DNA of 64,000 nucleotides, taken from Gemmatimonadales bacterium. GTDB lineage: Bacteria; Gemmatimonadota; Gemmatimonadetes; Gemmatimonadales; GWC2-71-9. The translations under genes and the position numbers were made by a program. Shown one piece after another: positions 1 through 35,483 of the stretch. The number at the start of each line of letters is the position of its first letter. Positions within the stretch are counted from its first letter, which is position 1. The notes under the pieces were generated by a model. It saw only the letters and a program-made list of their open reading frames with translations, made no database searches and had not been told where the DNA came from. Location: NCBI GenBank assembly GCA_039930845.1, contig JBDTTA010000001.1, positions 1,418 to 65,417 on the forward strand. Direction: 5' to 3'.

Positions 1-1365
1 CAGCTCCGCGGCCAGCCAGGCGCGCCACTCGTCCGAGCCGGAGGGTGGGGGGTCGCCGGTCCGCCCCGTCAGCGCACGCCACAGGTCGGCCAGCGTGGCG
101 TCGAACCTGGCCGTGTTCTCCCGCACATCGAGCCGGACGGTGCTGAACCGGAAAGCCTCGACCTCGCGACGCACCGGCCGCACGATGCTCGCGGCGATCT
201 CCGATCGTTCTGCCTCGCAGAGCTCGGTCTCCAGCAGCCTGAGATCGGCCACGAGCGCATCCGCCGATGCATAGTCCGCAGGGCCGGGCCGGCTATCACC
301 CCGTTCGGTGGCGACGATCATCGCGTCCAGACGGCGCAACATGCACACGAGGTACTGCCTGAACACCTCGCCCGGGTTCCGGTTCGCGATCGCCTCCGCC
401 TCACCGGTGACGGCGAGCTCCTTCTCCAGCGCCTGGCGAAAGCGGTCGGACGGCGGCAGCGCCTTTTCGGTGACGCTGAGCGCGCGCATCAACTCGTCGA
501 GCCGCCGCCGATACCGGCGGAGGACGGTCAGGCGATTCTCCAGCAGGGTGCTGCGCGTGACGGCGTTGGTCACGAAGGGATTGCCGTCGCGGTCGCCGCC
601 GACCCACGATCCAAACTGGAAAAACGGTGGCACCACCCACTCCTCCGAGGGGTAGTACTGCGCCAGCACGCGCTCGACCTTCTGGATGAGGTCGGGCACC
701 GCCTCGAAGAGCGTCTCATTGAAGAAGTGAAGTCCCCAGAAGACTTCCTGGGGAACGGTGGGCTTGGTGAGACGCAGCTCCCCCGTCATCCAGAGCAGCT
801 CGATCTCGTTGCGCAGTCCGTCCACGAGGGCCTGCCGCTCGCGGGGGGTCCACCGCGGCGACTCCAGATCCACGAGACGCCGATAGATTCGCCGGTGCTT
901 CTCGAGGACCGTGACGCGCTTGGCTTCGGTGGGGTGTGCGGTAATGACGGGACGGACGCGGAGCACCTCGAACAGCTTCCGGATTTCGGAGGCGGGGACC
1001 CTCGCGGCCGCGGCGCTCGAGATCACGTGGGCGAACGTGCCCCGCAACTGCTCGTATCCCCTCTCCACCTCGATCTGGCGACGCCGGCGCATTGCCGCGT
1101 TCTGTTCGGCGATGGACAGGAGCTGAAACCAGATGCCCTGCACCTGGAGCGTGCGGGCGAGCAGTTCGGGAGTGAGCTCGGCGGGCGTGCGCTCGCCGCG
1201 CAACACCGGCTCGACTTCGGGCATTCGCTTCCGCACGAGATCGAGCAGGAGGCCCGAGAGCAGCTCGACGACTTCGGTGGCGTAGTGCGCCGCACTTGCC
1301 GCGACCGGATCAGGTGATTCCGGCAGGTCCGCCGCGGAAAACGGCTCTAACGCCGCCTGGGTCAC
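1..1365 (-). CDS. ppc: Phosphoenolpyruvate carboxylase, N-terminal ~455 codons (gene continues beyond position 1)
   Basis: Absent from the ORF track because the frame has no stop inside the window. My own minus-strand translation from GTG (1365-1363) gives ...QGIWFQLLSIAEQNAAMRRRR..., VITAHPTEAKR and GSWVGGDRDGNPFVT. The last two are the PEP carboxylase signature motifs. The GTG overlaps the upstream stop (GTGA at 1362-1365). Confidence 0.88.
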   Translation of the reverse strand, partial: MTQAALEPFSAADLPESPDPVAASAAHYATEVVELLSGLLLDLVRKRMPEVEPVLRGERTPAELTPELLARTLQVQGIWFQLLSIAEQNAAMRRRRQIEVERGYEQLRGTFAHVISSAAAARVPASEIRKLFEVLRVRPVITAHPTEAKRVTVLEKHRRIYRRLVDLESPRWTPRERQALVDGLRNEIELLWMTGELRLTKPTVPQEVFWGLHFFNETLFEAVPDLIQKVERVLAQYYPSEEWVVPPFFQFGSWVGGDRDGNPFVTNAVTRSTLLENRLTVLRRYRRRLDELMRALSVTEKALPPSDRFRQALEKELAVTGEAEAIANRNPGEVFRQYLVCMLRRLDAMIVATERGDSRPGPADYASADALVADLRLLETELCEAERSEIAASIVRPVRREVEAFRFSTVRLDVRENTARFDATLADLWRALTGRTGDPPPSGSDEWRAWLAAEL

Positions 1366-2336
1366 ACGACGCGGTCCCGGAGCGGTGAGCCCTTGAAGAA
1401 AAGGCGAAGATTTTCGAGGGCGCGCATTCCCATCGCCACCCGGGTTTCCCGGGTCGCACTGCCGAGATGTGGCAGCAGCACGACGTTCTCCATGGCGAGG
1501 AGGGCGGCCGTGACCTGCGGTTCCTGTTCGAAGACGTCGAGCGCCGCGCCGGCGATCTTCCGCGCGACCAGCGCCTCGACCAGCGCGGCCTCGTCCACAA
1601 CATCGCCGCGCGCCGTGTTGATGAGGTAGGCGTCCGCACGCATCAGGGCGAGCCGCTCCCGGCCCATCAGGTGGCGCGTCTCGGGGGTGGCGGGACAATG
1701 CAGCGAGACGAAGTCCGCCTCCCGGAGCACCTGCTCGATCCGGGCGCGCGGCTCGGCACCGAGGGATGCGGCCACGTCGGCCGACGGCGGATACGGATCG
1801 TGGAAGATGACCTTCATGCCGAAGCCATGGTGCGCACGGCGCGCCACCGCGCGCGCAATTCGCCCCATGCCGATCAACCCGAGCGTTTTCCCGGAGACGT
1901 GGGTGCCGAGCATGTGCGTCGGCCGCCACCCGGTCCACTGGCCGGCGCGAATGTGGCGCTCGCCCTCGCCCGTACGCCGCGCCACCATCAGCAAGAGCGT
2001 GACGGCGAGGTCGGCCGTGGCGTCGGTGAGCACGTCGGGGGTGTTCGAGACCGCAATGCCCCTGGCCCGGGCGGCCTCGGTGTCGATGTGATTGAAGCCG
2101 ACGCCGAAGTTGGCGATGATGCGCGTCCGAAGGGGCTCGACCGAGAGGACGTCGGCGTTCAATCGATCGGTGACCGTGCAGAGCAGCGCGTCGGCGTGTC
2201 GCAGCGCTTCGCGAAGCCCATCGGGACCGAGGGGTCGGTCATCGGTATTGAGCCGGACGTCGAATTCACGGGTGAGTTCCTGCTCTACGGGATCGGGAAG
2301 CCGCCGCGTCACCACGACCGTCGGCCGTGCGCTCAT
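1362..2336 (-). CDS. hprA: D-isomer-specific 2-hydroxyacid dehydrogenase, glyoxylate/hydroxypyruvate reductase type
   Basis: 324-aa ORF with an NAD-binding GxGxxG (GLIGMGRIARAV) and a catalytic-region motif (NTARGDVVDEAAL...PHLGSAT). The hydroxypyruvate reductase role is inferred from serine-cycle neighbours. ATGA overlap with mtkB. Confidence 0.8.
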   Translation of the reverse strand: MSARPTVVVTRRLPDPVEQELTREFDVRLNTDDRPLGPDGLREALRHADALLCTVTDRLNADVLSVEPLRTRIIANFGVGFNHIDTEAARARGIAVSNTPDVLTDATADLAVTLLLMVARRTGEGERHIRAGQWTGWRPTHMLGTHVSGKTLGLIGMGRIARAVARRAHHGFGMKVIFHDPYPPSADVAASLGAEPRARIEQVLREADFVSLHCPATPETRHLMGRERLALMRADAYLINTARGDVVDEAALVEALVARKIAGAALDVFEQEPQVTAALLAMENVVLLPHLGSATRETRVAMGMRALENLRLFFKGSPLRDRVV

Positions 2337-3244
2337 TTCTTCACCATCGTGCGCCGCGGCTTCCTGGCCAGCGCGCCTGCCACCGTCGTGCCGAGCTCGG
2401 CGGGACTCGGCGCCACGACCAGCCCGGCCGACCGCATGATCTCGGCTTTTTCCGCCGCGGTGTCGCCGAACGCGGAGATGATGGCGCCCGCATGCCCCAT
2501 CCGGCGCCCCTTCGGCGCGGTGAGCCCGGCGACGTACCCGATGACCGGTTTCGTCATGTTCTCCTGGACGAACAGCGCCGCCTCGGCCTCCTGCGGTCCG
2601 CCGATCTCGCCGATGATCATCACGGCCTCGGTCTCCGGATCCTCCTCGAAGAGCTTGAGCATGTCCACGAACGAACTGCCGTTGATCGGGTCGCCGCCGA
2701 TGCCGACGCTTGTCGTCTGGCCGATGCCAAGGGCGTGCATCTGCGAGGCCGCTTCGTAACCGAGCGTGCCCGAGCGCGTCACCAACCCGACGGAGCCACG
2801 CGAGTAGATGTGTCCCGGCATGATGCCGAGCATCGCCTTACCGGCGCTGATGACGCCGGCACAGTTGGGGCCGATGAGCGTCGTGCGGCGCTCCTTCGGA
2901 AAGCGCCAGAGATATCGCTTCACCATCATCATGTCCTGCGCGGGGATGCCGTCGGTGATTGTCACGACCAGGCGAACGCCGGCATTGGCCGCTTCCATGA
3001 TCGAGTCGGCACAGAAGGCGGCGGGCACGAAGATGATCGTGGCGGTGGCACCGGTCTCCCGCACGGCGTCCTTGACGGTATTGAAGACCGGCCGGTCGAG
3101 GTGGCGCGTGCCGCCTTTTCCCGGCGTGACGCCGCCAACGACGTTGGTCCCGTACGCGATCGACTCCTTCGCGTGGAAGGTGGCCTTCTCGCCGGTGAAG
3201 CCCTGGAAGACGACGGGCGTCTTTTCGTCTACGAGAATGCTCAT
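2333..3244 (-). CDS. mtkB: Malate--CoA ligase (malate thiokinase) / succinyl-CoA synthetase alpha-type subunit
   Basis: 303 aa. N-terminus [45 protein letters not shown] and phosphohistidine loop MGHAGAII. Resembles my recollection of M. extorquens MtkB. Context is next to mcl and sga. Confidence 0.8.
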
Positions 3245-4440
3245 TGTCCGTTCCCGGCCGAAGCCTTTGCCTTCCGCGAGGTGGGGAGGGCGGCCACGAC
3301 GCGCTCGGCGGCCTCCGCAAGCGTATCCGCGGTGATGATGGGGAGCCCGCTCTCCTTCAGGATCTTTCGCCCTTCCTCGACGTTGGTGCCGGCGAGGCGG
3401 ACGACGAGCGGAATGCCGAGCTGGGTCTCGCGCGTGGCCTGCACCACGCCCTGCGCCACCCAGTCGCAGCGGTTGATGCCGGCGAAGATGTTCACCAGCA
3501 TCGCGTCGATGTTCGGATCGGAAAGCACGAGACGGAAGGCCGCCGCGACGCGGTCCGGGGACGCACCACCACCGACGTCGAGGAAGTTGGCCGGTGAGCC
3601 GCCCGCGTGCTTGATCATGTCCATGGTGGCCATGGCCAGGCCGGCGCCGTTGATGATGCAGCCGATGTTTCCGTCGAGCGCCACGTAGTTCAGGCCGAAC
3701 TCCGCCGCCTGCGCCTCACGCGGATCTTCTTCCGCGTAGTCGCGCAGCTCGCTCACGTTGGGCCGGCGGAACATCGCGTTATCGTCGAAGGTCATCTTGC
3801 AGTCGAGGGCCAGCACCTGCCCGTCGGTCGTGACGACGAGCGGATTGATCTCCACCATCGTGGCGTCGAGATCACGAAAGGCCCGGTAGGCGCCGAGGAG
3901 CGTCGTGACTGCCCGGCTCACCTGCGCCGGCGTCAGCCCGAGGCCGAACGCCACCTCACGGGCCTGGAACGACGTCATCCCTACCGCCGGCTCCACGACC
4001 TCGCGGACGATGGTATCGGGCGAGTTCCGGGCGATCTCCTCGATCTCCATCCCGCCCTGCGCCGAGGCGACGACCATGATCCGCTCACTCTTCCGGTCGA
4101 GCACCAAGCCGAGATAGATCTCCCGCTCGATGGGCACGGCGGCCTCGACGTAGAGCCGGTGGACCACGCGTCCCTCCGGACCGGTCTGGTGCGTCACCAG
4201 CCGCTTGCCGAGCAGCAGCTTGGCGGCCTGGCGCACCTCGTCCTCGTTGGAACAGAGCTTGATGCCGCCGGCCTTGCCGCGCGCGCCCGAGTGGATCTGC
4301 GCCTTCACCGCCCAGCGCGAGCCGCCGATTTCCGACGCGCGGTACACCGCCTGCTCGGGACTGTATGCCACGCCCCCTCGGGGAATCGCGACTCCGAAGC
4401 CGGCGAGCAGCTCTTTGGCCTGGTACTCGTGAATGTCCAT
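3241..4440 (-). CDS. mtkA: Malate--CoA ligase (malate thiokinase) / succinyl-CoA synthetase beta-type subunit
   Basis: 399 aa ATP-grasp protein: [22 protein letters not shown]...[20 protein letters not shown]...[34 protein letters not shown]. Long stretches match my memory of M. extorquens MtkA better than SucC. Confidence 0.8.
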
Positions 4441-4502
4441 GGACGAGACTCCGGTGTATGCTGGACCTGGCTCGCAATAGCCAATAGCCCTCGGTCAACG
4501 GC

Positions 4503-5441
4503 CTACTTCATTCCAATGGCCCCAGCCATCTTCACAACATTTTCCGCCATCCGTGCCGAGGCGGCGTCAATCATCTTGCCGTCGAGCTGCGCCGCGCCCT
4601 TCCCCTGGCTCGCCGCCTCGTCGAGCGCTTGGAGAATCCGCTTGGCCCGGTCCACCTCCGCGGGCGGCGGACTGAACACCTCGTTGGCCGGCTCGATCTG
4701 CGACGGATGAATCGCCCACTTGCCCTCGCTACCGAGTGCCGCGGCGCGGCGGGCCGCGGCGCGGTAGCCGTCGGGGTCCTTCAAATCGCCGAAGGGACCG
4801 TCGATGGGGCGGAGGCCATACGCGCGGCAGGCCACGATCATCCGTGAAAGTGCCGCGTGCCACTGATCCCCGGGATAGTCGGGGTTGAGGCCGCCGATAT
4901 TCACCGTGCGCGCACGGCAGCTTGCGGAGTAATCCGCAACGCCGAAATGCATCGCCTCGAGCCGGGGACTCGACTGCGCGATCGCCTCGACGTTCGTCAT
5001 GCCGAGCGCCGTCTCGATCAGCACGTCGATGCCGATCCGGTGCCCGATCCCCTTCGCCGCTTCGATCTGCGTCAGGAGCGCATCGATCATGTAGACGTCC
5101 GATGGCACCCCGACCTTGGGAATCAGCACCGTATCGAGACGGTGGCCGGCCTGTTCGATCACGTCGACGACATCGCGGTACATGTAATGGGTATCGAGCC
5201 CATTGATGCGAACGCAGATGGTCTTTCCGTGCCCGCGCCAATCGTGCTGCAGCAGCGCCGCGACGACGTTCTTTCGCGCCTGCTCCTTCTCCCCCGGCGC
5301 GACGGCATCCTCGAGATCGAGAAACACGTAGTCCGCCGCCCCCGCGAGCGCCTTCGCGAACATCGCCGGCTGGGAGCCGGGCACCGCCAGCTCACTTCGC
5401 TGCAGCCGCTGGCGCGCTGGCTCGTGCCGAGTATGACTCAT
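4503..5441 (-). CDS. mcl: L-malyl-CoA / beta-methylmalyl-CoA lyase (HpcH/CitE-like aldolase family)
   Basis: 312 aa: LQRSELAVPGS...FLDLEDAVAP..KEQARKN...RINGLDTHYMYRDVVD...IPKVGVP..VY...ACRAYGLRPIDGPFGD..DPDGY...GKWAIHPSQI. Near-collinear with the Mcl sequence I recall from M. extorquens. Confidence 0.85.
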   Translation of the reverse strand: MSHTRHEPARQRLQRSELAVPGSQPAMFAKALAGAADYVFLDLEDAVAPGEKEQARKNVVAALLQHDWRGHGKTICVRINGLDTHYMYRDVVDVIEQAGHRLDTVLIPKVGVPSDVYMIDALLTQIEAAKGIGHRIGIDVLIETALGMTNVEAIAQSSPRLEAMHFGVADYSASCRARTVNIGGLNPDYPGDQWHAALSRMIVACRAYGLRPIDGPFGDLKDPDGYRAAARRAAALGSEGKWAIHPSQIEPANEVFSPPPAEVDRAKRILQALDEAASQGKGAAQLDGKMIDAASARMAENVVKMAGAIGMK

Positions 5442-6688
5442 CGCCCGGCGCCGGCGGTGGCCTTCTCCTTCGCCGGTGCCGCTTCGGGCGCGCGCGGCGG
5501 CAGCTCGCGCCCGGGGAGCGGCGCAGCCGTGCGGCGCCAGTACTCCGAGGCCGCGGCCACACCGCTCCCAGGTGTGACGTCGATGCCCGCGTCCCGCATC
5601 GACATCTCGACGCCGGCCAGCGCACCGAGCAGCATCAGCTCGTTGAGATCGCCGAGGTGCCCGATCCGGAAGAGCTTTCCGCCCATGCGGGCCAATCCCG
5701 CGCCGAGGGCCAGGTCGTATCGGCGGTAGGCGATGTCGATCACCACCGCGGCGTTGATGCCCGCGGGCACCATGACCGCGCTCACCGTGTCAGAGTTCCA
5801 CTTCGGGGCCCGCGCACAGAGCTCGAGGCCCCACGCCTTGACCGCCCGGCGGGTGCCTTCCGCAAGCCGGTGGTGCCTCGCGAAGACGTTCTCGAGCCCC
5901 TCCTCCTGAAGGATGGCGAGCGACTCGCGCAGGCCGTACAGCATCGAGAGCGACGGGGTATACGGGAAGTAGCCCGTGGCGTTTGCCTTCCGCATGTCGC
6001 CGAAGTCGAAGAAGACGCGTGGCAGCTTGGCCTGATCGTACAGCGCGAGCGCCTTCGGGCTCACACACACGATGCCGAGCCCCGCCGGCAGCATGAATCC
6101 CTTCTGGGAGCCCGCCACCGCGAGATCGACGCCCCACTCGTCCATCCTGAAATCGATGCTGGCGATCGAGCTCACACCGTCGACCATCAGGAGCGCCGGG
6201 TGCCTGGTATCGTTCAGCGCCTTGCGCATGGCGCCCACATCGCTGGTGACGCCGGTCGCGGTCTCGTTGTGCGTGAAGAGTACCGCCTTGATCTGGTGGT
6301 TCTTGTCGGCGGCGAGCGCGTCCTGGTAGCGCTCGATCGGGGCGCCTTCTCCCCATTCCGCGTCCAGCACGTCCACCGTGAGCCCGAGCCGCTGCGCCAT
6401 GTCGATCCAGAGATGACTGAACATGCCGAATCGCGCGGCGAGCACCCGGTCCCCCGGCGAAAGGGTGTTGGAGAGCGAAGCCTCCCACACGCCGGTCCCG
6501 CTCGCGGGAAAGATGAATGCCTGGCCGGACGTGGTCTTGAACACCTTCTTCAGGTCCTCGAGGACCGGAACCGCCAGCGAAGGGAACGATGAGGAGCGAT
6601 GGTCCTCCATGGCCACGTGCATGGCGCGGAGAACGCGGTCGGGCACGTTGGTAGGGCCCGGGACGAAGAGAAAGTTGCGGCCGGCCAT
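5438..6688 (-). CDS. sga: Serine--glyoxylate aminotransferase (class V aminotransferase)
   Basis: 416 aa: GRNFLFVPGPTNVPDRVLRAM...FPASGTGVWEASLSNTL..GD.VLAARFG.FSHLWIDMAQRLGL...HNETATGVTSD...AGSQKG.MLPAGLG. ATGA overlap with mcl. GAGAGG Shine-Dalgarno sequence lies upstream. Confidence 0.85.
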   Translation of the reverse strand: MAGRNFLFVPGPTNVPDRVLRAMHVAMEDHRSSSFPSLAVPVLEDLKKVFKTTSGQAFIFPASGTGVWEASLSNTLSPGDRVLAARFGMFSHLWIDMAQRLGLTVDVLDAEWGEGAPIERYQDALAADKNHQIKAVLFTHNETATGVTSDVGAMRKALNDTRHPALLMVDGVSSIASIDFRMDEWGVDLAVAGSQKGFMLPAGLGIVCVSPKALALYDQAKLPRVFFDFGDMRKANATGYFPYTPSLSMLYGLRESLAILQEEGLENVFARHHRLAEGTRRAVKAWGLELCARAPKWNSDTVSAVMVPAGINAAVVIDIAYRRYDLALGAGLARMGGKLFRIGHLGDLNELMLLGALAGVEMSMRDAGIDVTPGSGVAAASEYWRRTAAPLPGRELPPRAPEAAPAKEKATAGAGR

Positions 6689-6758
6689 GCGCGAAACCTC
6701 TCGAAAAAAAAGTGGAACACAGGCGAGAGCAGGGTGGCCCCGCCGAGTGATGACTACA

Positions 6759-6786
6759 TTGGAGGCGGTGCGCCCCCACGAATAAT
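6759..6786 (+). promoter_or_regulatory. Candidate sigma70-like promoter for gckA (TTGGAG-16 nt-AATAAT)
   Basis: TTGGAG at 6759-6764 and AATAAT at 6781-6786, in the AT-richest patch of the sga/gckA divergent spacer. Pattern match only. Confidence 0.3.
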
Positions 6787-6800
6787 TATGCGACTTTCCT

Positions 6801-6829
6801 GATATAGCACTTTGTGCTTTTTTTCACAA
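6801..6829 (-). promoter_or_regulatory. Candidate sigma70-like promoter for the sga operon (TTGTGA-17 nt-TATATC on the minus strand)
   Basis: Minus-strand TTGTGA (6829-6824), 17-nt spacer, TATATC (6806-6801). It would give a ~105-nt leader. Pattern match only. Confidence 0.3.
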
Positions 6830-8190
6830 GGTTCCCGACCGTGGCCCAAGACCCCTCCCGATCTGCGCCATTGACCGACGCTGGCCGCCTGCTGGCCGAC
6901 CTCTATCGCGTTGCTACCGAGGCCGTTAACCCGGGGCCTGCGCTGACCACGTCCCTGGGCCGGCTGTCTCCTTTCCCCTCCCGGCCACCCTGGATCCTCG
7001 CCCTCGGCAAGGCGGCGACACCGATGGCAGCGGCTGCCGTCGACGTCCTGGCCGGGCAGGGACTCGGGCCGGCCGGCGGTCTCATCGTCGCGCCGCATGC
7101 CGACCCGTCGGCGCACCCGCGCCTCGAGGTCGTCGCCGGAGACCACCCCGAGCCGGGCCAGGGCTCGCTCGCGGCCGCCGCGGCACTCGCCCGATCTGCC
7201 GACCGGATCGGGGCGGATGACGAGGTGTGGGTCCTCCTCTCGGGTGGCACCACCAGTCTGATCGGGGCGCCGGAGACCGGGATCTCCGCCTCCGACCTCG
7301 CCATGCTCTACGCGCTGCTCCTCGGCTCGGGGCTCGACATCACCGCGATGAATCGCATCCGGAAGCGATTCTCACGGTGGGGCGGTGGAAAACTCGCCCT
7401 TGCCCTCGCGCCCGCGAGGGTACGCACCTTTGTCGTCTCCGACGTCATCGGCGACGATCCGGCATCGATCGGGTCCGGGCCCTGCGTCGCCGATCCGTGC
7501 ACCGCCACGGAGGTGCGCCGGATGCTCGAGGACGCCTCGCTCTGGGATCGCATCCCGGCGGCGGCCCGCGATCTGGTGACGGCGGCTGAAGCGGGGAGAA
7601 GAGCGGAAACGCCGAAGCCCGGCGACGACGCCTTCGCGCGCGTGTCCCTCGAGTTGATCGCCAGCAACCGTCTCGCCGTGGAGGCGGCGGCACGGCACGC
7701 GGCGGCGCTGGGTCTGGTTCCCGTCGTGAACAACGGGCCGCTGGCTGGGGAGGCCGCCGCCGCAGGTGAGCGTCTGGCCACGCGCCTGTTACAAAATTGC
7801 GGCCCGTCCACCTTCCCGCAACCGGAGGAAGCGCCGAGACGAAAGTGTTTCATTCAGGGTGGGGAGACGACGGTGACGCTCGGGGACGAGCCGCACGGAC
7901 TCGGCGGCCGGTGCCAGGAGTTGGCGCTCGCCGCGGCGCGAGTGCTCGAGGGCAACTCGATTGGCGTCGCGCTCCTCGCGGCTGGCACCGATGGGCGTGA
8001 CGGACCAACCGATGCCGCCGGCGCCATCGTGGACGGCCACACCTGGCGCGCCATACGCGCGGCGGGCCGCGACCCGGCGCACGACCTCGCGGCACACGAT
8101 GCCTACCGCGCGCTCGACGCCGCCGATGCCCTGCTCCGTCCCGGCCTCACCGGGACGAACGTGATGGATGTGGTGATCGGGGTGTGCTGA
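6814..8190 (+). CDS. gckA: Glycerate 2-kinase (MOFRL / TtuD-GckA family)
   Basis: 458-aa ORF with DPASIGSGP, GGETTVTL and AAGTDGRDGPTDAAGAIVDG...GLTGTNVMD motifs typical of the DUF4147+MOFRL glycerate kinases. The start is uncertain: GTG 6814 (ORF track) or in-frame TTG 6871. Confidence 0.8.
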   Translation: MLFFTRFPTVAQDPSRSAPLTDAGRLLADLYRVATEAVNPGPALTTSLGRLSPFPSRPPWILALGKAATPMAAAAVDVLAGQGLGPAGGLIVAPHADPSAHPRLEVVAGDHPEPGQGSLAAAAALARSADRIGADDEVWVLLSGGTTSLIGAPETGISASDLAMLYALLLGSGLDITAMNRIRKRFSRWGGGKLALALAPARVRTFVVSDVIGDDPASIGSGPCVADPCTATEVRRMLEDASLWDRIPAAARDLVTAAEAGRRAETPKPGDDAFARVSLELIASNRLAVEAAARHAAALGLVPVVNNGPLAGEAAAAGERLATRLLQNCGPSTFPQPEEAPRRKCFIQGGETTVTLGDEPHGLGGRCQELALAAARVLEGNSIGVALLAAGTDGRDGPTDAAGAIVDGHTWRAIRAAGRDPAHDLAAHDAYRALDAADALLRPGLTGTNVMDVVIGVC

Positions 8191-8193
8191 GAA

Positions 8194-8820
8194 CTACGGG
8201 TGCAGCGGAAGAGTCGGGCGGTAGTCGTTGCCCACGATCACCGTCGCGTCCACCCGACGGAGCGTGTCGAGCTGGATTCTGATTCTGCCGGCGCCGAGGG
8301 CCTCGATAACATCCTTGCCCCGCCCCGGGTCTCCACGGCGAACGGCCACCCGAGTGGTATCGGTGACGCTATCGGCGTTGCCGAAGAACACGACGTCGAT
8401 CCCGTGCTCGCGCAACACCCTCGTCGCGACTCGCGCGAGCCCCTGACGCCGCGTCCCGTTCAGCACCTCCACCGTGATCCGCTCCCGCGCCGTGGGCACA
8501 GCATAGGCGTGCCCCTGGACGCGCTCGCGAGGCGGCGGCCAGAACCGCCAGACCGCGCCACCGACAGCGAGCACGAGGACCGCGCCTATCGCGAGGCTGA
8601 TGGCGAGGCGACGAGACTGTTCCAGAAGCGCACCGTCGGTTCGGGGATGATCCAGCCGGATCGCACCAATCCCGCGACGCGGTCGCGGGCAACCTCCCGA
8701 AGCACCGACCCCGGCTCGGTCGGGTAGTCGCGGGCAAGCGTGGTACGACGCTCGACGTCCCACGGGCGGCCGGGCTCGAGGTAGTCGGCGCAGTACAGAC
8801 TCCTGCCCACCATGTCCCAC
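8194..8820 (-). CDS. LytR_C (LytR cell-envelope-related transcriptional attenuator C-terminal) domain membrane protein
   Basis: One TM helix (AISLAIGAVLVLAVGGAVW), then RITVEVLNGTRRQGLARVATRVLREHGIDVVFFGNAD...VIVGNDYRP. The 5' end is unreliable. The only canonical starts (GTG 8820, GTG 8763) overlap the upstream gene by 178-235 nt. Confidence 0.6.
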   Translation of the reverse strand: MGHGGQESVLRRLPRARPPVGRRASYHACPRLPDRAGVGASGGCPRPRRGIGAIRLDHPRTDGALLEQSRRLAISLAIGAVLVLAVGGAVWRFWPPPRERVQGHAYAVPTARERITVEVLNGTRRQGLARVATRVLREHGIDVVFFGNADSVTDTTRVAVRRGDPGRGKDVIEALGAGRIRIQLDTLRRVDATVIVGNDYRPTLPLHP

Positions 8821-9170
8821 TCGGCCAGCCCCACGGAGTGGTATCTCACCGCATCGAGCACGCCCCGGTCCACCTCGCCCTCCGCCTTGGCCCGCGCGGC
8901 GCTGGCCGGGCCGTGTCGGAGCGCGGGCGGTCCCGGTGTGCTGGATGCCAGCCGCTCGAGCTCCCCCGGCGGTGCGTCACGCAGCGCATCGTGCAGCCAG
9001 ACCGCTCGGAGCCAGCGGTTTCGCTCGTTGGCGGGAATGAGCATGTCGGCGGCCCACGACGAGACGAGGGCGGCGACACGCTCGATGTGGGCAAGGCGCG
9101 CCGGAGTGACCACGGCCCAGGACGGGAGTGTCGGACGGAGTCCCGGCGCGGCGCGGCGTTCGTCGGGCAT
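8586..9170 (-). CDS. HD-domain phosphohydrolase, YqeK-like
   Basis: 194 aa with H..(ERVA)...LHDALRD...RHGPASA...VRYHS...YCADYLEPGR spacing, typical of YqeK-type HD proteins. TGATG junction with panC. Confidence 0.6.
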   Translation of the reverse strand: MPDERRAAPGLRPTLPSWAVVTPARLAHIERVAALVSSWAADMLIPANERNRWLRAVWLHDALRDAPPGELERLASSTPGPPALRHGPASAARAKAEGEVDRGVLDAVRYHSVGLAEWDMVGRSLYCADYLEPGRPWDVERRTTLARDYPTEPGSVLREVARDRVAGLVRSGWIIPEPTVRFWNSLVASPSASR

Positions 9171-11267: not shown

Positions 11268-13349
11268 TCAGGTCTCGACGACGAAATGCCGAGCGATCCG
11301 CTGCAGATCGGCCGCGACGTCGCCGAGCTCGCGAATCGCACGCTCGAGGTCCGACTGACCCGACGCCGCCTCCGACGCCCGTCGCGCCAGGGCGTCGGTG
11401 TCCGCCCTGGTACGGGTAGAGCTGGCGGCGACTCGTTCGATCTGTCCGGTGAGACCGCTCACCGCATCGAGCTGCTCCGCCGCCGTCGCGGCAATGGCCT
11501 GCGCGTGCCGCCCCGCTTCGCCGGTGGTGCCCACGATGGCCTCCAGCGCCTGGCCGGCATTGGCGCTCAACTCCTCCACGCCGGCCACGGCATCTCGCCC
11601 GCGGTCCATCGTCAGCGAGACGGTGGACACCTGCGCGGCGATTTCCTCGAGCAACGTGCGCGCTTCGCCGGCCGCGTGGAGGCTCTGGGCGGCAAGGTCG
11701 CGCACCTCGTCGGCCACTACCGCGAACCCTCTTCCCTCGGCGCCCGCGCGCGCCGCTTCGATCGCCGCATTGAGCGCGATGAGGCTGGTAAGGTCCGCGA
11801 TTTCCCTGATCGTCCCGATGAATCCCGTGATGCGCGCCGTGAGCGCCCCCAGCGACGCGACCTGATCGGCGCTGGCGGAGACGAAGCCCTTGAGCCCCAC
11901 CAGCCGGTCGATCGCCTGGGCGATCACGACGCGGTTCTTTCCCGCCACCTCCGCCGCCGTGCCGCTCGCCCTGGCGGCCTGCGCGCCCTGCGAAGCCATG
12001 GCGCGAGTGGCCGAGGCGAGGAGATCGGTCGCGCGGAGCCCGCCGGTCACGAACGCCTCGAGCTCGGTGGCCCCCTGCCGCATGCCCTGCGATGCGTCGG
12101 CGAGCGCGATCGCCGACGCGCGGAGCGACTCCGTCACGCGGACCAGCGCCGTCACCTGCAGGCCGATCTGGTCCACGGTGCTGAGCAGCGGGCGCCGGAG
12201 CTCGGCGATATGGATCGCGGTGGCCATCTGATTCGCCAGCGTGCTGAGCGCGAGGAGGTCCTTGGCGCCGTAGGCATGGCGCTTGGGATGATCCACCTCG
12301 ACGGTACCGAGCATTTCGTCGCCGAACCGGATTGGATGGATCACCATGCTGCCGACGTCGGGAATCGGCGAGCTCACCCGCGGATCGCGCCGGACATCCT
12401 TCACCACCACGGTTGCGCCGCGGGACATGGCCTCCAGGCGGAACGGTTCGGCGCCTGCGGGCGCCTCCCCCGAGCCCGTGCGCGCCAACGTCCCGCGGTA
12501 CGCGAGCATGGGACCGGTGGGCGTGACCCGGTAGACCCGGAAATCGGTCCAGTCGAGCAGCCGGTACGCGAGCCGCTCGATCTGTCCGAAGGATCCCTGG
12601 AGCGTGGCGTTGCTCGCGATCGACGCCTCCATCATGTGCACCTTGTTCAGGTCCTCCGCCCCGATGGCCTCCTCCAGAATCCTGCGCGTGAGCACGCCGA
12701 GCACGCCGAGCGCGAGGCTCACGGCGAGCCAGCCGGCGGGCGCGAGCGTGCGGATGCCCGCGACGATGATGACGGTCGCGATCAGCGTGAGCAGGTACGA
12801 GATGATTTCCCAGCGCAGGATCAGGATCTTCTCGACGTATTCGAGCTTGTCCCGGACCAGCAGGGTAAAGTAGAACAGGGCACGACTGATGAAGAAGTAA
12901 AGGCAGACCAGAATCGCGGCGGCGGGAAGCAGGTCGATCGTGAACCCGGCTCCGCCCCCCAGCGCGAGGACCGCGGCGTAGGGCCCGTACGCGGCCATGA
13001 ACGCGATGACTTCCCGGCCGGCGTTCACCAGACCGGCCCGCGGCAGCTTCCTGAGCCAGAGCACGTCAGACACGAAGACACCGGACCAGAGCCCGATGAT
13101 CACCGGTGTCGGCCCCACGCACACCGCGCCCACAAGCGCGGGAATGCTCGACTGCGTGAGATAGGAATATTTGCTGAGGCGCACCGGCGCCGCGCGCAGT
13201 GCCGCCACGGCGGTCGCCAGGAAGACGCACGTGAGCGGCTGGAGCAGCCAGCGGAGATCGGTGGCCAGCGCACCGGCGGCGATGGCCAGGCCGCCGAGCC
13301 ACAGCACCATGGCGTAGCGCTCGATGAGGCGCTGCAGATCGATGTTCAT
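11268..13349 (-). CDS. Multi-pass membrane sensor with GAF domain and methyl-accepting chemotaxis protein (MCP) signalling domain
   Basis: 693 aa. About 7 hydrophobic helices in aa 10-235. A GAF-like segment follows (...[13 protein letters not shown]...[18 protein letters not shown]...). The C-terminal coiled coil carries the MCP hairpin-tip signature [34 protein letters not shown]. No HAMP-like segment recognised. Confidence 0.8.
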
Positions 13350-14137
13350 GCGGCCGCCCCGCGGTCGAGCGCCTGGCGGAGTGACGCGAGGAAGCGGCGC
13401 ATCCCGGCGACACCATCGTGCCCCAGGACATCGACGAGCGCGCTGCCCACGACCACGCCATCGGCCAATCGTCCCACCTCGGCTGCCTGCACTGGCGTGC
13501 TGATGCCGAAACCGACGGCGACGGGAAGGCTCGTCGCCTGGCGGAGCTGAGCCACCGATTCCGCGAGACCCCTGGAGAGCGAGGCGGTCGCCCCGGTCAC
13601 GCCGAGGCGCGCCACGAGGTACACGAACCCCTCCGCGCCCGCCACCGCGGCGGCCAGACGTTCGGGGCGGGTCGTGGGCGCGACGAGACGGATGAGATCG
13701 AGCGGACTCGCCTGGACCGCCGACTCGACGGCGGGATCGCTTCCGGCCGGCAGGTCGGTGAGCAGCAGTCCACCGATCCGGAGGGCATCCGCCTCGCGCA
13801 GAAAGCGTTCGACTCCATAGCGGAGCACCGGGTTGAAGTAGCTGAAAATCACGACCGGGTGCGAGAGCTGGGCGCGGGCGATGAGCTCCAGCGTGCCGGT
13901 CAGGGTCATCCCCGCCTGCAAGGCCTCGAAGGTGGAGCGCTGAATCGTCGGGCCATCGGCGAGCGGATCGCTGAACGGCACGCCGACCTCGATGATGTCG
14001 GCAAACTCGTCCGCGGCGCGCAGCGCATCGAGGCTCTCCTGCGCCGACGGATACCCCGCGGTGAGATACGGGATCAGCGCGGTGCGCCGCCCGGCGTCAA
14101 GCGCCTCCCAGGCCACCGAGAGCCGGGACTCAGACAA
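13346..14137 (-). CDS. trpA: Tryptophan synthase alpha chain
   Basis: 263 aa: [11 protein letters not shown]...[18 protein letters not shown]...[16 protein letters not shown] start with an 8-nt overlap of the upstream HD-GYP gene. Confidence 0.9.
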
Positions 14138-15587
14138 AATAGTCGCCGACCGTCAGGCCATACCGACCCGGGTTGGTGACCTTGACGATGGAGCGCCGGA
14201 ATGCGCCGGAGTCGTCCTTGTCGCCGAGACTCACCAGCGTGCCGGGCGGCGGAATGGCCCCGCCATTCACCTCCACGGCGAGTCTGACCAGCGGACGGTT
14301 GAGCTGCTGGCTGTCGGGATCGGGGGCGGCGACGATGGCGATCTCGAGCGTGTCGAGAATCACGCAGGTCCCCACCGGATAGACACCGATGAGATTCACC
14401 AGCGCCTTGACGAGCAGCGGGTCGTACCCGCGCCTGGGATTCTCCAGCATCTCCCGGAGCACCTGGTCGGGCTCGATGGGAATCGTCTGGTAGGTGCGTC
14501 TCGTGGTGGCGGCGTCGAAGCCGTCGGCCACCGAGACGATACGCGAGAAGATGTGGAGCTTCCGTGGACGGACCACCTTCGGATACCCGGTCAGGTCGGT
14601 CTTCATGTGATGCTCATGGGCGACGAGGATCGTCCGGAAGGGCACCTCGTCCTGGCTCTTCAGGTGGAAGAGGGTGAGCGCACCGAGCCACGGATGGCCC
14701 TGCATCACGCGCCACTCCTGCTCGTCGAGGCCGGTCGTCTTGTGCAGAATATCGAGGGGGACCCGTGCCTTGCCCACGTCGTGCAGCAGCGCGGTCATGC
14801 CGAGATCGTAGAGCTGGAGCCGGGAGAGGCCGAGCTTCTTGCCGAGGGCCACCGAGAAGATGCACACATTTACAGAGTGGGTGAACGTGTATTCGTCGTA
14901 ATCGCGGATGGTGGTGAGCCCGACGAGCGAGGTCTCGTTGTTGAGCACCTGGTCCACGATGAGCTGCACCGCGCGCTTCACCTTCTTCACGCTCCCGGCG
15001 CGGCCAAGCCGGGCGCCGGTGATCACTTCCCTGGTGACCGCCACCCCCTGTGAATACACGCGCTTGGCGGCCTCGCGCTGCTCCTCGGTCTCCGCCTCGT
15101 GCTCGTTGTGCGTCGCGCGATCGATACCGATGCCCTGCACCGCGCCCTGCTGCAGGCGCGCCTCCAGCTCGTCGAAGCGGGTATCGGCATCGCCCTCCCG
15201 CTCGGACAGGCTGAGGAGGATGCTCAGGAAGATCTGCCACTCCCGTCGCGTGACGGACGAGTGCACCCGGAGTCCGCCGATGTCGAAGGCCCGGAGCATC
15301 GTGAGGATGTGGCTGAACGAGGCGTAGTTGTCGAGCTCGAGCCGGAGCCGCGTGGCGTTGACGAAGATGAAGTCGCCCGCCAGGCGGAGCTCCAGATCAG
15401 CCTCGACCTCCAGCAGCGATTTGCCGGCGACGTCGAGGTCGTCGAGCGCCTTCTGCACGGTGGCGTTCTCCACCGGATACAGCTTGAGGCTGCGGAGCGC
15501 GGTATAGAGCGCGAGCAGCAGGGTGCGGCCGCCATGGCGGAGCTGTCCGTCCGACGCGCGCGCGCTCGCTTCGCCGGCGTGGCTCAC
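14130..15587 (-). CDS. HD-GYP domain protein (putative c-di-GMP phosphodiesterase) with N-terminal unknown module
   Basis: 485 aa. HD-GYP core THSVNV...ALLHDVGKARVP...QGHPWLGA...VAHEHHMKTDLTGYPK...ADGFDAATTRRTY. GTG start in a GTGA overlap with the upstream gene. Confidence 0.8.
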   Translation of the reverse strand: MSHAGEASARASDGQLRHGGRTLLLALYTALRSLKLYPVENATVQKALDDLDVAGKSLLEVEADLELRLAGDFIFVNATRLRLELDNYASFSHILTMLRAFDIGGLRVHSSVTRREWQIFLSILLSLSEREGDADTRFDELEARLQQGAVQGIGIDRATHNEHEAETEEQREAAKRVYSQGVAVTREVITGARLGRAGSVKKVKRAVQLIVDQVLNNETSLVGLTTIRDYDEYTFTHSVNVCIFSVALGKKLGLSRLQLYDLGMTALLHDVGKARVPLDILHKTTGLDEQEWRVMQGHPWLGALTLFHLKSQDEVPFRTILVAHEHHMKTDLTGYPKVVRPRKLHIFSRIVSVADGFDAATTRRTYQTIPIEPDQVLREMLENPRRGYDPLLVKALVNLIGVYPVGTCVILDTLEIAIVAAPDPDSQQLNRPLVRLAVEVNGGAIPPPGTLVSLGDKDDSGAFRRSIVKVTNPGRYGLTVGDYFV

Positions 15588-17263
15588 GACGCGCTCTCCC
15601 GAAGCGCGCGACTCACGGCGTTCCGGACCACCAGGTCCTTGTCCTCCGCGGCGCGACGCAGCACGTCGCGGGCCTCGACGGTGCGGATCTTTCCGAGCGC
15701 GATGGCGGCGCAGGCCCTGGTCTCCGACGCCTCCTTCATCCGCAACAACCCGCGTGGAAGCAGGATTGCGCTCATCGTCTTGAGGCCGGCCGCGCCGGCG
15801 ATGGCGCCGTACGCCTCGAAGAAGGCCATCTTTTCCGTGAGATCCATCCCCTTCACGCCCTTCCCGAGCACGATGGCCTCCACCCGGCGCTGCGCCCCCT
15901 TGTACCCCCGCGCCGCCACGACCCGGACCGCCGCCAACCGGACGCCGCGATCTTCATCCTCCAGCGCTTTCTCGATGAGGGCGAGCGCGGCCGGCGTGGC
16001 GAGCTGCGCGAGCGTCTGCACCGACGCCAGGCGGACGGCCGGATCCGGATGGAGGATCGTCTCGCCGAGTCCCGGGACCGTCTGATGGAGGTTGAGCCGT
16101 CCGCACACGCCGATCACGGAGACGAGCGCCGCCGAATCCTTGTCGCGGAGAATGCGGAGGACCTCGGCGGTGTGCGCTTCGGCCAGTCGGTCGGCGACGC
16201 CTTCGAGCAGTGTTCTGAGCGGCGCCGACGAGAGCACGGGCAGCCAGCCGAGGATCGGTTCCAGCGCCGTCGCACGCAGCTCGCGCAGCACTTCCGCCAC
16301 TTGCGGCTCGGTCGCGATTGCCGACGACTCGTCGAGCGACTGGATGAGCTGGCTCACGATGGCCGCCTCGCTCAGCCGGCTGACGAAGCCCTCCAGCCGC
16401 TCCCCCTGTCCCGGGAGAATCCCCGAGGTGCGGCTCGACAGCAACCGGCACTCGCGGATGATCGTTGCGGCAGCCCGGAAATCCCGGGCATTCAGGAAGG
16501 TGGGGAACAACTGCTCCATGATGTCGAGGATCTCGTCGCGAATGTCCTGCCCCTGCTCCAGCTCAAACAGGTCGAACAGGGCGGCGAGCGCCGAGGCCCG
16601 CACGTCCCGGCGGTATTCCTCCTCGATCTCGGCGGCGATCGTATTGATCTCGTTCTCGTCCAGGAAGTACAGGGTGGAATCGAAGTCCTCCACGTCCACC
16701 ACGCCCTTGGGGCGCGGCGGCGCTTCCTCGGCGGCCTGGGCGTGTCGCTCGCCCGCGCCACCCGCGTTGTACGTCCCGCTGCGTTCCGGCAGCGAACCGC
16801 CGCCTTCCCCGAAGAACTCGATGAACTTGTACTGGATGAACTGGAATTCCTGCTCCCAGAGCAACGTCAGCAGATCGTCCCCTGCATCCGATGTCAGGAA
16901 TCGGGCCCGGTTGATCAGCTCGAGGAAGCGGGACAGCTCCTCCGCTTCGGCGCCGCGGCGGAGCGTCAGCGAGCGCATGCCGTCCTTGAACACGCCCCAG
17001 GCGATACTCTCGCTCTTGTTCGGCTGATGATAGACCACCTGCTCTTCCCAGACGAAATCGGTTTCCGCCACCGTGAGGACGACTTCGTCGTGGCTCTCCC
17101 AGACCGGCTCGAAGGCCGCGCGGAGGTTGTCGGTCGAGCGTTGGTGAATCGGATTGTTGGGGAGGTACATGTGGTAGGCCCGGAGCGCCTTCACCAGACT
17201 GTTCAACAGCTCGGTGATCAGCGACGCCGGGAGTGCGTCCGCCGAGGGCGTCGGCCGGGTCAC
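15584..17263 (-). CDS. HEAT-repeat protein with N-terminal module resembling that of the adjacent HD-GYP protein
   Basis: The C-terminal half has HEAT/PBS-lyase-like repeats ([17 protein letters not shown]..., [17 protein letters not shown]..., [16 protein letters not shown]). I place the start at GTG 17263 (GTGA overlap with the trpB stop). The ORF-track start 17476 would overlap trpB by 217 nt. Confidence 0.6.
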
Positions 17264-18462
17264 ACCGTGTGCCCCAGCAGCGCGGCGACGTGCGCGACGT
17301 CCTTGTCGCCGCGGCCGCTGAGGCAGACGAGCACGAGCGCGTCGTCGTCCCACTGCCCCGCCATTCGCCGCACCCACGCGAGCGCATGCGCGGTCTCGAG
17401 CGCCGGGATGATGCCCTCCGTTCGGCAGAGTGACCGAAAGGCGTCGAGCGCCTCCGCGTCGGTGGCCGATTCGCATGCGACGCGCCCGCTGTCGCGGAGG
17501 AAGCTGAGCTCGGGCCCCACGCCCGGGTAGTCGAGTCCCGCCGAAATGGAATGTGCCGGCGACACCTGGCCATCGGCGTCCTGCAGGAGGTAACTCAGGC
17601 TGCCGTGCAGCACGCCGGGCGAGCCGGCGCCGAGCGTGGCGCTGTGGTGTCCCGACTCGAGCCCCTCGCCGGCGGCCTCGACCCCGACCAGGCGGACATC
17701 GCGATCATCGAGGAAGCCGGAGAAGATGCCCATCGCGTTCGATCCGCCGCCCACGCACGCCACGACGCTGTGGGGAAGGCGACCGTAGCGCGACAGCATT
17801 TGTGCGCGCGCCTCGCGACCGATCACCGACTGGAAGTCGCGCACCATGCGCGGATACGGATCGGGGCCGACGACCGAACCGATGATGTAGTGGGTCGTGG
17901 GGACGTTGGTGACCCAGTCACGAAGCGCCTCATTGGTCGCATCCTTGAGCGTCCGGGTGCCCGAGTCCACCGGCACGACGGTGGCGCCCAGTAACTCCAT
18001 GCGATACACGTTGAGCCGCTGGCGGGCCACATCCTCGGCGCCCATGTACACCACGCACTCGAGGCCGAAGCGCGCGCATACCGTGGCCGTCGCCACGCCG
18101 TGCTGGCCCGCCCCGGTCTCGGCGATGATGCGCCGCTTGCCCATTCTGAGTGCGAGCAGCGCCTGCCCGATCGTGTTGTTGATCTTGTGCGCGCCGGTAT
18201 GATTGAGGTCCTCCCGCTTGAGCACAACCGTGGCGCCCACTTCCGCGCCCAGGCGCGGCGCCTCTGAAATCGGCGACGGGCGCCCGACGAAGTCGGCAAG
18301 CAGCTGTTCGTAATCCGCCCAGAACGGCGGATCTCCTCGGACGGAATCGTACAGCGCGGCGAGGTCGTCCAGCGCCGCGACGAGCGTTTCAGGCACGTAA
18401 CGGCCGCCGTACGGGCCGAATCGTCCGCCCACCGCTCGTTCAGGAGACAGCGCTATGGCCAC
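17260..18462 (-). CDS. trpB: Tryptophan synthase beta chain
   Basis: 400 aa: [13 protein letters not shown]...[16 protein letters not shown] (PLP lysine)...GGGSNAMG. Confidence 0.95.
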
Positions 18463-19084
18463 ACACCGCCCCCATGAAGCGCGCGATTTTCGCTGAATCC
18501 TTGATTCCCGGCAGGCTCTCGACGCCGGAACTTACATCCACGACATCGGGACGAACGAGTACCGCCGCCTCGGCAACGGTCGCCGGGTCGAGCCCGCCCG
18601 CCAGCACCATTGGATGTCCGGCCAGACGAAGACGAGCGGCACGCGCCACGGCCAGATCGAGCGCGACGCCCGCGCCACCGGAAAGATGCGACACCATCGG
18701 TTCCACGAGAACGGCATCGGAATCGGGCACCGATGAGTCGAGCACATCGACATCCGCAGGAGCGGCGATGCGTACCACCCGCCAGACCACGAGTCCCTCG
18801 CGCCGCAGCCGGCTCGCCGCCTCCCGGCCATACGGGCCGTGGAGCTGCGCCCCCTTCAGCCTCGCACCGTCACTTGTATGGAGAATCTCTTCGACGGTCT
18901 GATCCCCGAAGATACCGAAGACCGGGATGGCGCCCCCGGCACGCGAGATCTCGGAAGCCAGCGGCACCGAGATCTGACGGGGTCCCCCCGCAAAAACGAC
19001 GCCCAGGTAGGACGCACCCGCCTCCACGGCGGCCTCGGCGTCACCCGGCCGGGTCAATCCACAGATCTTGACCCTAACGGGCAT
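18440..19084 (-). CDS. trpF: Phosphoribosylanthranilate isomerase
   Basis: 214 aa: [31 protein letters not shown]...[11 protein letters not shown]. Confidence 0.85.
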
Positions 19085-19862: not shown

Positions 19863-19869
19863 CTTGTCC

Positions 19870-19910
19870 TTCGGCCGGTCTTCGGGTAGTCTTATTCGGC
19901 CTCTATTCGG
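19870..19910. repeat. Four phased TTCGG direct repeats in the trpC/lexA divergent spacer
   Basis: TTCGG at 19870, 19881, 19895 and 19906 (spacing 11/14/11 nt). The two right copies extend to TATTCGG. Confidence 0.4.
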
Positions 19911-19939
19911 TGGCCAACCCGAGCGACGAGGAGAATGCC

Positions 19940-27797: not shown

Positions 27798-28042
27798 GCT
27801 ATCGAGTGCATGTGCGCGTGATGCCGCGGGCCGGATTGCTGGACCCGCAGGGACAGGCGGTGGAGCACGCCCTTTCGGCGCTCGGGTTCGGAGAGGCCGG
27901 TGGCGTCAGGATCGGACGCGCCATCGAGCTCGAGGTGAGCACGCCGACCCGGGGCGAGGCCGAGACCCGGGTCCGGCAGATGTGCGAAAAGCTTCTCGCC
28001 AATCCGGTCACGGAGGACTATCTCCTCGTGGTGGAGGAATGA
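27794..28042 (+). CDS. purS: Phosphoribosylformylglycinamidine synthase subunit PurS
   Basis: 82 aa: [21 protein letters not shown]......RIGR.IEL......EA...[14 protein letters not shown]. Confidence 0.9.
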
Positions 28043-31392: not shown

Positions 31393-31395
31393 CGG

Positions 31396-35456: not shown

Positions 35457-35483
35457 GAAGGCCAATCGCCAGAAAGGAATTCC

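Follow-up and report, generated by a model that had tools for sequence, protein, structure and literature searches.

A conserved cluster of serine-cycle genes in a Gemmatimonadales genome, with a probable role in one-carbon assimilation

Seven genes of serine-cycle type lie side by side at positions 1-8190 of the DNA analysed here, and they raise the question of which carbon substrate such a cluster serves in a member of the Gemmatimonadales. The window, that is, the whole stretch of 64,000 nucleotides, is taken from contig JBDTTA010000001.1 (positions 1,418 to 65,417; assembly GCA_039930845.1). Gemmatimonadota are abundant soil bacteria whose part in the turnover of methanol and other one-carbon (C1) compounds has been inferred almost wholly from metagenomes. 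The seven genes cover every step of the serine cycle that is not shared with central metabolism. The region is a Gemmatimonadales example of an operon type that has already been described, its pathway having been reported from the phylum before, and it probably serves to assimilate C1 units derived from methanol or other methylated substrates.

Gene content and order were observed directly. Six genes follow one another on the minus strand, beginning with sga (5438-6688), which encodes a serine-glyoxylate aminotransferase matching PDB entry 6pk1. It is followed by mcl (4503-5441), for an L-malyl-CoA/beta-methylmalyl-CoA lyase recognised by PDB matches and active-site residues and, after a 62-nt spacer (4441-4502) that is the sole non-overlapping junction of the operon, by mtkA (3241-4440) and mtkB (2333-3244). 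The first of these encodes the beta (ATP-grasp) subunit of malate-CoA ligase (malate thiokinase), assigned by NCBIfam NF010647, and the second its putative alpha (CoA-binding) subunit, with matches to the Pfam families CoA_binding and Ligase_CoA. An hprA-type D-2-hydroxyacid dehydrogenase gene (1362-2336; Pfam 2-Hacid_dh_C and 2-Hacid_dh) and the 5' part of ppc (1-1365; Pfam PEPcase), the last gene of the operon and open at the window edge, complete the series. On the plus strand, divergent from sga, gck encodes a putative glycerate 2-kinase of the MOFRL/DUF4147 type, class II (Pfam DUF4147 and MOFRL), its longest open reading frame (ORF) spanning 6814-8190. The G+C content at third codon positions is 0.82-0.89 for all ORFs of the cluster, as in real genes of this genome. 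A first-pass annotation, made from the letters of the sequence alone, had proposed this layout of six minus-strand genes and a divergent kinase gene; its coordinates were reproduced, and its list of products matches the Pfam and NCBIfam assignments.

The methylotrophy-specific set defined genetically in Methylobacterium extorquens comprises sga, hpr, gck, ppc, mtkA, mtkB, mcl and glyA (PMC2680597). Seven of these eight genes are adjacent at 1-8190, among them all seven that had been named on first inspection as defining the serine cycle of that organism, and glyA was not found in the 64-kb window.

A search of 185,579 species-representative genomes with the Mcl protein as query retrieved 80 loci, which form the basis of all locus counts given here and to which the labels L001 and so on refer. 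The order sga-mcl-mtkA-mtkB-hprA-ppc is identical in 20 of the 80, namely in eight Gemmatimonadales and 12 Gammaproteobacteria. It also fits the published Type I serine-cycle cluster, sga-mcl-mtkBA-hpr-ppc, of a 2026 paper in which 'Type I/II' clusters of Alphaproteobacteria are described (PMC13199381). The first-pass annotation had regarded so compact a unit as unusual, on the ground that the genes of classical methylotrophs are split over several clusters. Neither point held: the arrangement recurs across these loci and in the published clusters, and even M. extorquens keeps six serine-cycle genes in one methylotrophy cluster, with gck and glyA unlinked, while complete single serine-cycle clusters exist in other Proteobacteria (PMC2680597).

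In the pathway proposed, serine hydroxymethyltransferase (SHMT), encoded elsewhere, would form serine from glycine and methylene-tetrahydrofolate (methylene-H4F), and Sga would transfer the amino group of serine to glyoxylate, which leaves hydroxypyruvate and glycine. The HprA-type reductase would then reduce hydroxypyruvate to D-glycerate, Gck would phosphorylate this to 2-phosphoglycerate, and enolase, likewise encoded elsewhere, would yield phosphoenolpyruvate (PEP), which Ppc would combine with CO2 to give oxaloacetate. Malate produced by malate dehydrogenase, again encoded elsewhere, would be activated to malyl-CoA by MtkAB at the expense of ATP, and Mcl would cleave malyl-CoA to acetyl-CoA, the product, and glyoxylate, which would return to Sga. 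The six minus-strand genes probably constitute one transcript, which would start from the conserved element found some 120 nt ahead of sga, and coupled translation would be favoured by the four stop/start overlaps. Homology and the literature are the grounds on which co-transcription, the substrates and the C1 role are proposed.

A C1 role is favoured because the orthologous operon of Aminobacter is C1-induced and because soil Gemmatimonadetes carry XoxF, tetrahydromethanopterin (H4MPT) genes and the serine pathway. In Aminobacter sp. NyZ550 sga, mcl, mtkBA, hpr and gck form one transcription unit, which methylamines induce and SecR regulators activate; a double mutant lacking secR1 and secR2 no longer shows this induction (PMC13199381). 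The soil Gemmatimonadetes genomes of Butterfield et al. (2016) carry and express XoxF and H4MPT genes alongside a 'canonical malate-intermediated serine pathway', XoxF being the most abundant soil protein recorded there (PMC5103831). Further metagenome-assembled genomes (MAGs) of Gemmatimonadetes bearing XoxF have been reported (PMC10875860, PMC11264602).

The same enzymes might instead run the assimilation of two-carbon (C2) compounds such as glycolate and glyoxylate, or a photorespiration-like loop, in an organism that is not a methylotroph. This alternative is considered less probable, although it retains an appreciable chance of being correct. Glyoxylate would be converted to glycine, two glycines would give serine through the glycine cleavage system and SHMT, and serine would pass onward via hydroxypyruvate, glycerate, PEP, oxaloacetate and malate. 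The final steps, catalysed by Mtk and Mcl, would then regenerate glyoxylate or, in reverse, condense glyoxylate with acetyl-CoA. Against it, all seven genes, ppc and gck among them, belong to the set genetically defined as methylotrophy-specific (PMC2680597), and the induction of the Aminobacter operon by methylamines through serine-cycle regulators (PMC13199381) and the expression of XoxF and H4MPT genes in soil Gemmatimonadetes (PMC5103831) likewise point to C1 metabolism.

Several observations favour the C2 alternative or otherwise weigh against a C1-assimilating operon. Genes for C1 oxidation, H4MPT metabolism and H4F interconversion (mtdA, fch, ftfL, folD) and glyA were all absent from the 64-kb window and from the 10-kb regions flanking the cluster in those Gemmatimonadales relatives that were inspected, and glyA, ftfL, mtdA and fch were not found linked to the cluster in the distant Gemmatimonadales L024, L049 and L022. 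The C1 role therefore draws on literature at the level of the phylum and not on this genome, and at least one Gemmatimonadota MAG put forward as a C1 user has been disputed. The first-pass annotation had remarked on the lack of C1-oxidation and folate-interconversion genes, which proved true of the whole 64 kb, and had left the choice between C1 and C2 assimilation open, a fair caution for a window of this content. On the NCBIfam model for BhcA, a glyoxylate-assimilation enzyme, the aminotransferase falls a little short of the cut-off. In SAR11 and the Acidimicrobiia, mcl and mtkAB occur without the remainder of the cluster, so that in these lineages the function of the Mcl/Mtk module is evidently not that of a complete serine cycle encoded in one cluster.

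The reductase adds to these points, its closest relatives being glyoxylate reductases. Its best NCBIfam match is the glyoxylate reductase model PRK13243 (317 bits, cut-off 455), and it falls under every curated NCBIfam cut-off. Among solved structures it scores 258 bits to glyoxylate reductases of the Pyrococcus type (archaeal) and 214 bits, slightly less, to the Hyphomicrobium glycerate dehydrogenase 1gdh. It is, at the same time, 59% identical to the hpr product of the Aminobacter cluster, which occupies the same operon position and matches the same NCBIfam profile. The gene appears to be of the GyaR/GhrB-like glyoxylate/hydroxypyruvate-reductase lineage, as in the Aminobacter operon, and not of the Methylobacterium/Hyphomicrobium HprA lineage. 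From its context, the dehydrogenase would act as a hydroxypyruvate (and glyoxylate) reductase.

Also to be counted on this side are the alpha subunit of the ligase and the results of regulatory scans. The mtkB product matched SucD models alone in NCBIfam, passing the SucD equivalog (426 bits, cut-off 336), and no match to an MtkB-specific model was returned for the 2333-3244 product, so that the alpha subunit is inseparable from SucD by this means. A simple sigma-70 scan of 1-9000 returned 0 promoters, and an intrinsic-terminator scan of the same interval returned four terminator-like matches, a chance level, all on the plus strand and three of them within minus-strand genes. Weighed together, C1 assimilation through the serine cycle is still regarded as the probable role of the operon.

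A more radical alternative is that the thiokinase pair and the lyase are an ordinary SucCD and a CitE-like protein, and that the cluster is a chance neighbourhood of central-metabolism genes. Besides the SucD match of the alpha subunit, it can claim that both thiokinase subunits score 360-430 bits to solved SucCD structures. The recurrence of one gene order in 20 species from two phyla rules out a chance neighbourhood, and the scores of the beta subunit and the lyase, set out below, leave this explanation very improbable.

The mtkA product passes the NCBIfam equivalog NF010647, 'malate--CoA ligase subunit beta', with 711.8 bits against a cut-off of 604, and scores 552 bits, that is, 160 lower, on the SucC model NF001913. 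MtkA of Aminobacter, used as a control, behaved in the same way on the two models (724 and 556 bits, respectively). This classification was made by the cut-offs of curated hidden Markov models (HMMs) and not by a rooted phylogeny, the 80 loci having yielded no sucCD outgroup; a second sucCD-like copy was found neither in the 64-kb window nor in any of those loci. The probable assignment of mtkB is based on the overlap of its start with the mtkA stop and from its constant pairing next to mcl: it accompanies mtkA beside mcl in all 60 of the 60 loci that carry the mcl-mtkA-mtkB trio.

The Mcl protein matched PDB entry 5ugr (MclA) with 409 bits and 67% identity and Mcl1 of R. sphaeroides (4l9y) with 309 bits and 51% identity; its score to the citrate lyase CitE (3qll) was only 124 bits. 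Entry 5ugr is taken to be the M. extorquens enzyme. All six active-site and Mg residues of the lyase MCLR were observed in the alignment to be kept in Mcl, as E44, D45, R78, E143, D170 and D292. In MCLR numbering the six are two catalytic residues (Arg76 and Asp299), two ligands of Mg (Glu141 and Asp168) and two water ligands (Glu44 and Asp45); position 299 is occupied by Asp in lyases and by Glu in malyl-CoA thioesterase (PMC3832036). The lid residue of the Mcl studied here is Asp and thus of the lyase type, not the thioesterase type. A difference was seen at about residues 190-192, where a 15-residue loop of 5ugr MclA is missing, as are nine residues relative to R. sphaeroides Mcl1. This short-loop form, roughly 312 amino acids long, is the common one and has the length seen in most of the 80 homologues.

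Sga scored 488 bits to the solved serine-glyoxylate aminotransferase 6pk1 and 145-165 bits to AGXT, SPT and an archaeal serine aminotransferase in the PDB. Although the BhcA model is its top NCBIfam match (625 bits), identity as BhcA within a beta-hydroxyaspartate cycle for glyoxylate assimilation is scarcely credible, since the score lies under the curated cut-off of 650 in the same manner as those of Sga controls from the serine-cycle clusters of Aminobacter, Hyphomicrobium and Mesorhizobium (582-596 bits), for which a sub-threshold score is normal, the 64-kb window holds no genes resembling bhcB, bhcC or bhcD, and the neighbours are mcl, mtkAB, hprA and ppc. The HMM and PDB scores, the lyase residues and the Sga controls effectively exclude both the SucCD/CitE and the BhcA assignments. 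By the same scores, the early impression that Sga, Mcl and MtkA resemble the methylotroph proteins more closely than AGXT, CitE or generic SucC was well founded (488 bits against about 150, 409 against 124 together with the lyase residues, and a 160-bit margin over the SucC model beyond the NF010647 cut-off).

Of ppc, 455 of about 926 codons fall within the window, a full-length orthologue of 926 amino acids being present in the closest relative, L001; the product matches Pfam PEPcase at 3e-83, with positions 57-431 of the 919-position profile covered. The operon stops after ppc in relatives, where a convergent radical-SAM gene and aspS come next. Two distant Gemmatimonadales depart from this: in L024 (16756-17976) and L049 (16709-17926) a gene for a 405-residue acyl-CoA dehydrogenase follows ppc on the same strand after a gap of 17-28 nt. 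This gene is not present in the closest relatives of the window. It is possibly an added operon member with a link to glyoxylate regeneration or acyl-CoA metabolism.

Gck matched PDB entries 1x3l and 2b8n ('glycerate kinase, putative'), aligned only from residue 25-28, and scored 152-162 bits on archaeal glycerate 2-kinase equivalogs of NCBIfam, far under their cut-offs of 550-670. The GTG start at 6814 is doubted because it lies inside the conserved non-coding element described below and because homologues align from residue 25-28. It is probably spurious, GTG 6841 or TTG 6871 appearing likelier. A gck gene divergent upstream of sga occurs in nine Gemmatimonadales loci and nowhere else among the 80.

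The junctions within the operon were read from the sequence. ATGA overlaps join sga to mcl (5438-5441), mtkA to mtkB (3241-3244) and mtkB to hprA (2333-2336), and the GTG start of ppc lies on the hprA stop in a GTGA overlap (1362-1365), all as located in the first-pass annotation. Across the window, 4-nt overlaps were counted in 13 of 42 same-strand neighbour pairs when the start of the longest ORF was used. They make up four of the five junctions in the cluster and nine of the 37 elsewhere (Fisher p = 0.026), and unrelated genes are joined in the same way, as in the pairs of trpA with a gene for a methyl-accepting chemotaxis protein (MCP) with a GAF domain and of purF with the pyruvate phosphate dikinase gene, and in the series CorA/AIRC-like/Dus. 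Overlaps of 4 nt are therefore a habit of the genome as a whole, modestly enriched in the cluster and not special to it. The 62-nt mcl-mtkA spacer was considered as an internal promoter or RNA element and rejected. Its sequence is not conserved among Gemmatimonadales relatives, it has no Rfam match, and neither a promoter nor a terminator consensus was detected in it. Over 1-9000 as a whole, Rfam yielded a single match at E<=1, which is at chance level.

Between gck and sga, at 6805-6830 on the minus strand, lies a conserved non-coding element of 26 bp, TTGTGAAAAAAAGCACAAAGTGCTAT, which on the sga strand has the form TTGTGAAAAA-N4-RCAAWGTGYTAT. Besides the window, five Gemmatimonadales loci share it, at this position only (L001 8614-8639, L002 3177-3202, L003 8606-8631, L006 3462-3487 and L007 1841-1866); in L003, L006 and L007 it clearly falls beyond the coding part of gck. 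It was absent from the more distant Gemmatimonadales L004 and L010 and from all proteobacterial loci of the sample. Within the element stands TGTGA-N6-GCACA, a motif with one occurrence in the window where 0.03 would be expected, and in L006 and L007 the palindrome is perfect, TGTGA-N6-TCACA. It can be read as a CRP/FNR-like palindrome or, alternatively, as a promoter composed of TTGTGA, a 17-nt spacer and the extended -10 sequence TG-n-TATATC. In either case it is a candidate promoter/operator of the sga operon.

Clusters of Types I-IV have a SecR gene beside sga and a SecR box, CCYACCCG, upstream of it (PMC13199381). The box is absent from 1-9000, its three matches in the window all lying elsewhere and being fewer than expected by chance, and no secR, response-regulator or LuxR-type gene adjoins the cluster. 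A rewiring of the operon in the Gemmatimonadales may be conjectured, in which SecR/QscR control is lacking, gck has been recruited in divergent orientation, and the 26-bp element, as a CRP/FNR-like operator/promoter peculiar to the lineage, ties the pathway to another signal, e.g. energy, oxygen or C2 status. Such an operon, possibly serving glycolate or glyoxylate instead of or besides methanol assimilation, might have passed in one piece between Gammaproteobacteria and Gemmatimonadota. As a whole this scenario is unlikely and is offered as speculation.

The best loci of the genome scan with Mcl are Gemmatimonadales MAGs, the top locus, on a 1.45-Mb contig, having Mcl and MtkA proteins 86% and 95% identical, respectively, to those of the window. 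The closest MtkA proteins in the database (82-93% identity) are likewise from Gemmatimonadales MAGs and already bear the name 'malate--CoA ligase subunit beta'. The genes flanking the cluster (LytR_C, HD, panC, panB, GAF-MCP, trpA, HD_5) are syntenic in four Gemmatimonadales MAGs, and this synteny persists even where gck identity is down to 54%. These homologues and flanks agree with the non-proteobacterial context suspected at the outset. In a tree of concatenated Mcl, MtkA and MtkB the Gemmatimonadales sequences form a single clade. Because of this clade and the syntenic flanks the operon is taken to have resided long in the lineage, and the cluster appears to be an old, vertically inherited resident of the Gemmatimonadales chromosome. 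Recent horizontal arrival as an island was considered and rejected: the G+C content of 0.67-0.69 equals that of the flanks, the flanking genes are syntenic across Gemmatimonadales, and G+C is uniform across the window at 66-70%.

One locus of that clade bears a foreign label. In L011 (CANGPO010000011.1, 'Actinobacteria bacterium'), mcl-mtkA-mtkB is nested beside L004 and L010 in the concatenated tree, which points to a contig that was mis-binned or mislabelled, or else to a transfer. Elsewhere in the sample the mcl-mtkAB core occurs by itself, with Mcl 67-78% identical to that of the window, in two marine lineages, SAR11 (L047-L051, L054, L056, L062, L063, L066, L069 and L071) and the Acidimicrobiia (L025, L029 and L057); in these loci sga, hprA and ppc are not in line with it.

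The remainder of the window is of a housekeeping nature, with trp and pur genes, the dikinase gene, aminoacyl-tRNA synthetase genes and mreBC/rodA/PBP2. Next to gck, a LytR_C ORF (8194-8820) and an HD ORF (8586-9170), delimited by longest-ORF starts, overlap by 235 nt in different frames. At least one of the two starts is presumably over-called, since both ORFs are conserved in relatives and yet overlap to this extent (8194-9170). The trp genes, at 13346-20054, are interrupted: trpA (13346-14137) stands apart from trpB (17260-18462), trpF and trpC, from which an HD_5 (HD-GYP-like) gene and a gene for a 630-residue HEAT-repeat protein separate it. The GAF-MCP gene overlaps trpA by 4 nt, and the stretch HD_5-trpA-MCP is conserved in L001, L003 and L004. 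A purine cluster, purB, purC, purQ, purL, purF, purE and purK, occupies 23925-37129; the pyruvate phosphate dikinase gene (32787-35456) is inserted between purF and purE and overlaps purF by 4 nt.

A complete, conserved and chromosomally stable operon provides a clean genetic marker by which Gemmatimonadales possessing the full assimilation route can be told from those that do not, and the conserved upstream element offers a handle on the regulation of the pathway outside the Proteobacteria. The divergent gck and the lineage-specific upstream element are small additions to what is known; otherwise the locus brings no new enzyme, pathway or architecture.

Among known systems, the Type I/II clusters of Alphaproteobacteria share with the window the order and orientation sga-mcl-mtkAB-hpr-ppc. 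In the sample, Aminobacter has sga-mcl-mtkAB-hprA-gck, Mesorhizobium sga-mcl-mtkAB-hprA and Hyphomicrobium sga-mcl-mtkAB, and identities of the window proteins to those of the three genera are 58-61% for Sga, 70-74% for Mcl, 66-70% for MtkA and 58-59% for the GyaR-like Hpr. The Aminobacter operon includes a MOFRL-type gck as the window does, but at the operon end instead of in divergent orientation. The window differs further from the alphaproteobacterial clusters in that sga has no secR neighbour and no SecR box upstream, and in having a different conserved upstream element. Its genes mostly overlap by 4 nt, whereas the alphaproteobacterial spacers range from overlap to ~175 nt; the overlaps are retained in L001 and nearly so in L007.

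The gammaproteobacterial MAGs (Chromatiales, Thiotrichales, Ca. Oxydemutatoraceae, Ca. Porisulfidus and others; 12 species) have the identical six-gene order, with Mcl 73-78% and MtkA 58-75% identical to the window proteins. They are without a divergent gck and fall into separate clades of the Mcl and MtkAB tree, and in the loci inspected spacers of roughly 40-260 nt take the place of the overlaps. M. extorquens shares sga, hpr, mtkAB, ppc, mcl and gck with the window, in a different gene order. In the window gck is linked, Hpr is of another lineage, and mtdA and fch in the cluster and a nearby LysR-type regulator are lacking.

From the same phylum come the soil genomes of Butterfield et al. 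(2016), for which methylotrophy with a serine pathway was reported in Gemmatimonadetes, so that the novelty implied by the first-pass annotation does not stand (PMC5103831). In the passages retrieved, that paper makes no mention of malyl-CoA or malate thiokinase and apparently gives no operon layout. Its pathway legend assigns a 'glycerate kinase' to Gemmatimonadetes and a 'glycerate 2-kinase' to Rokubacteria, and the gene in the window is of the MOFRL 2-kinase type (PMC5103831). Those genomes and the window share both the phylum and the inferred serine pathway (PMC5103831).

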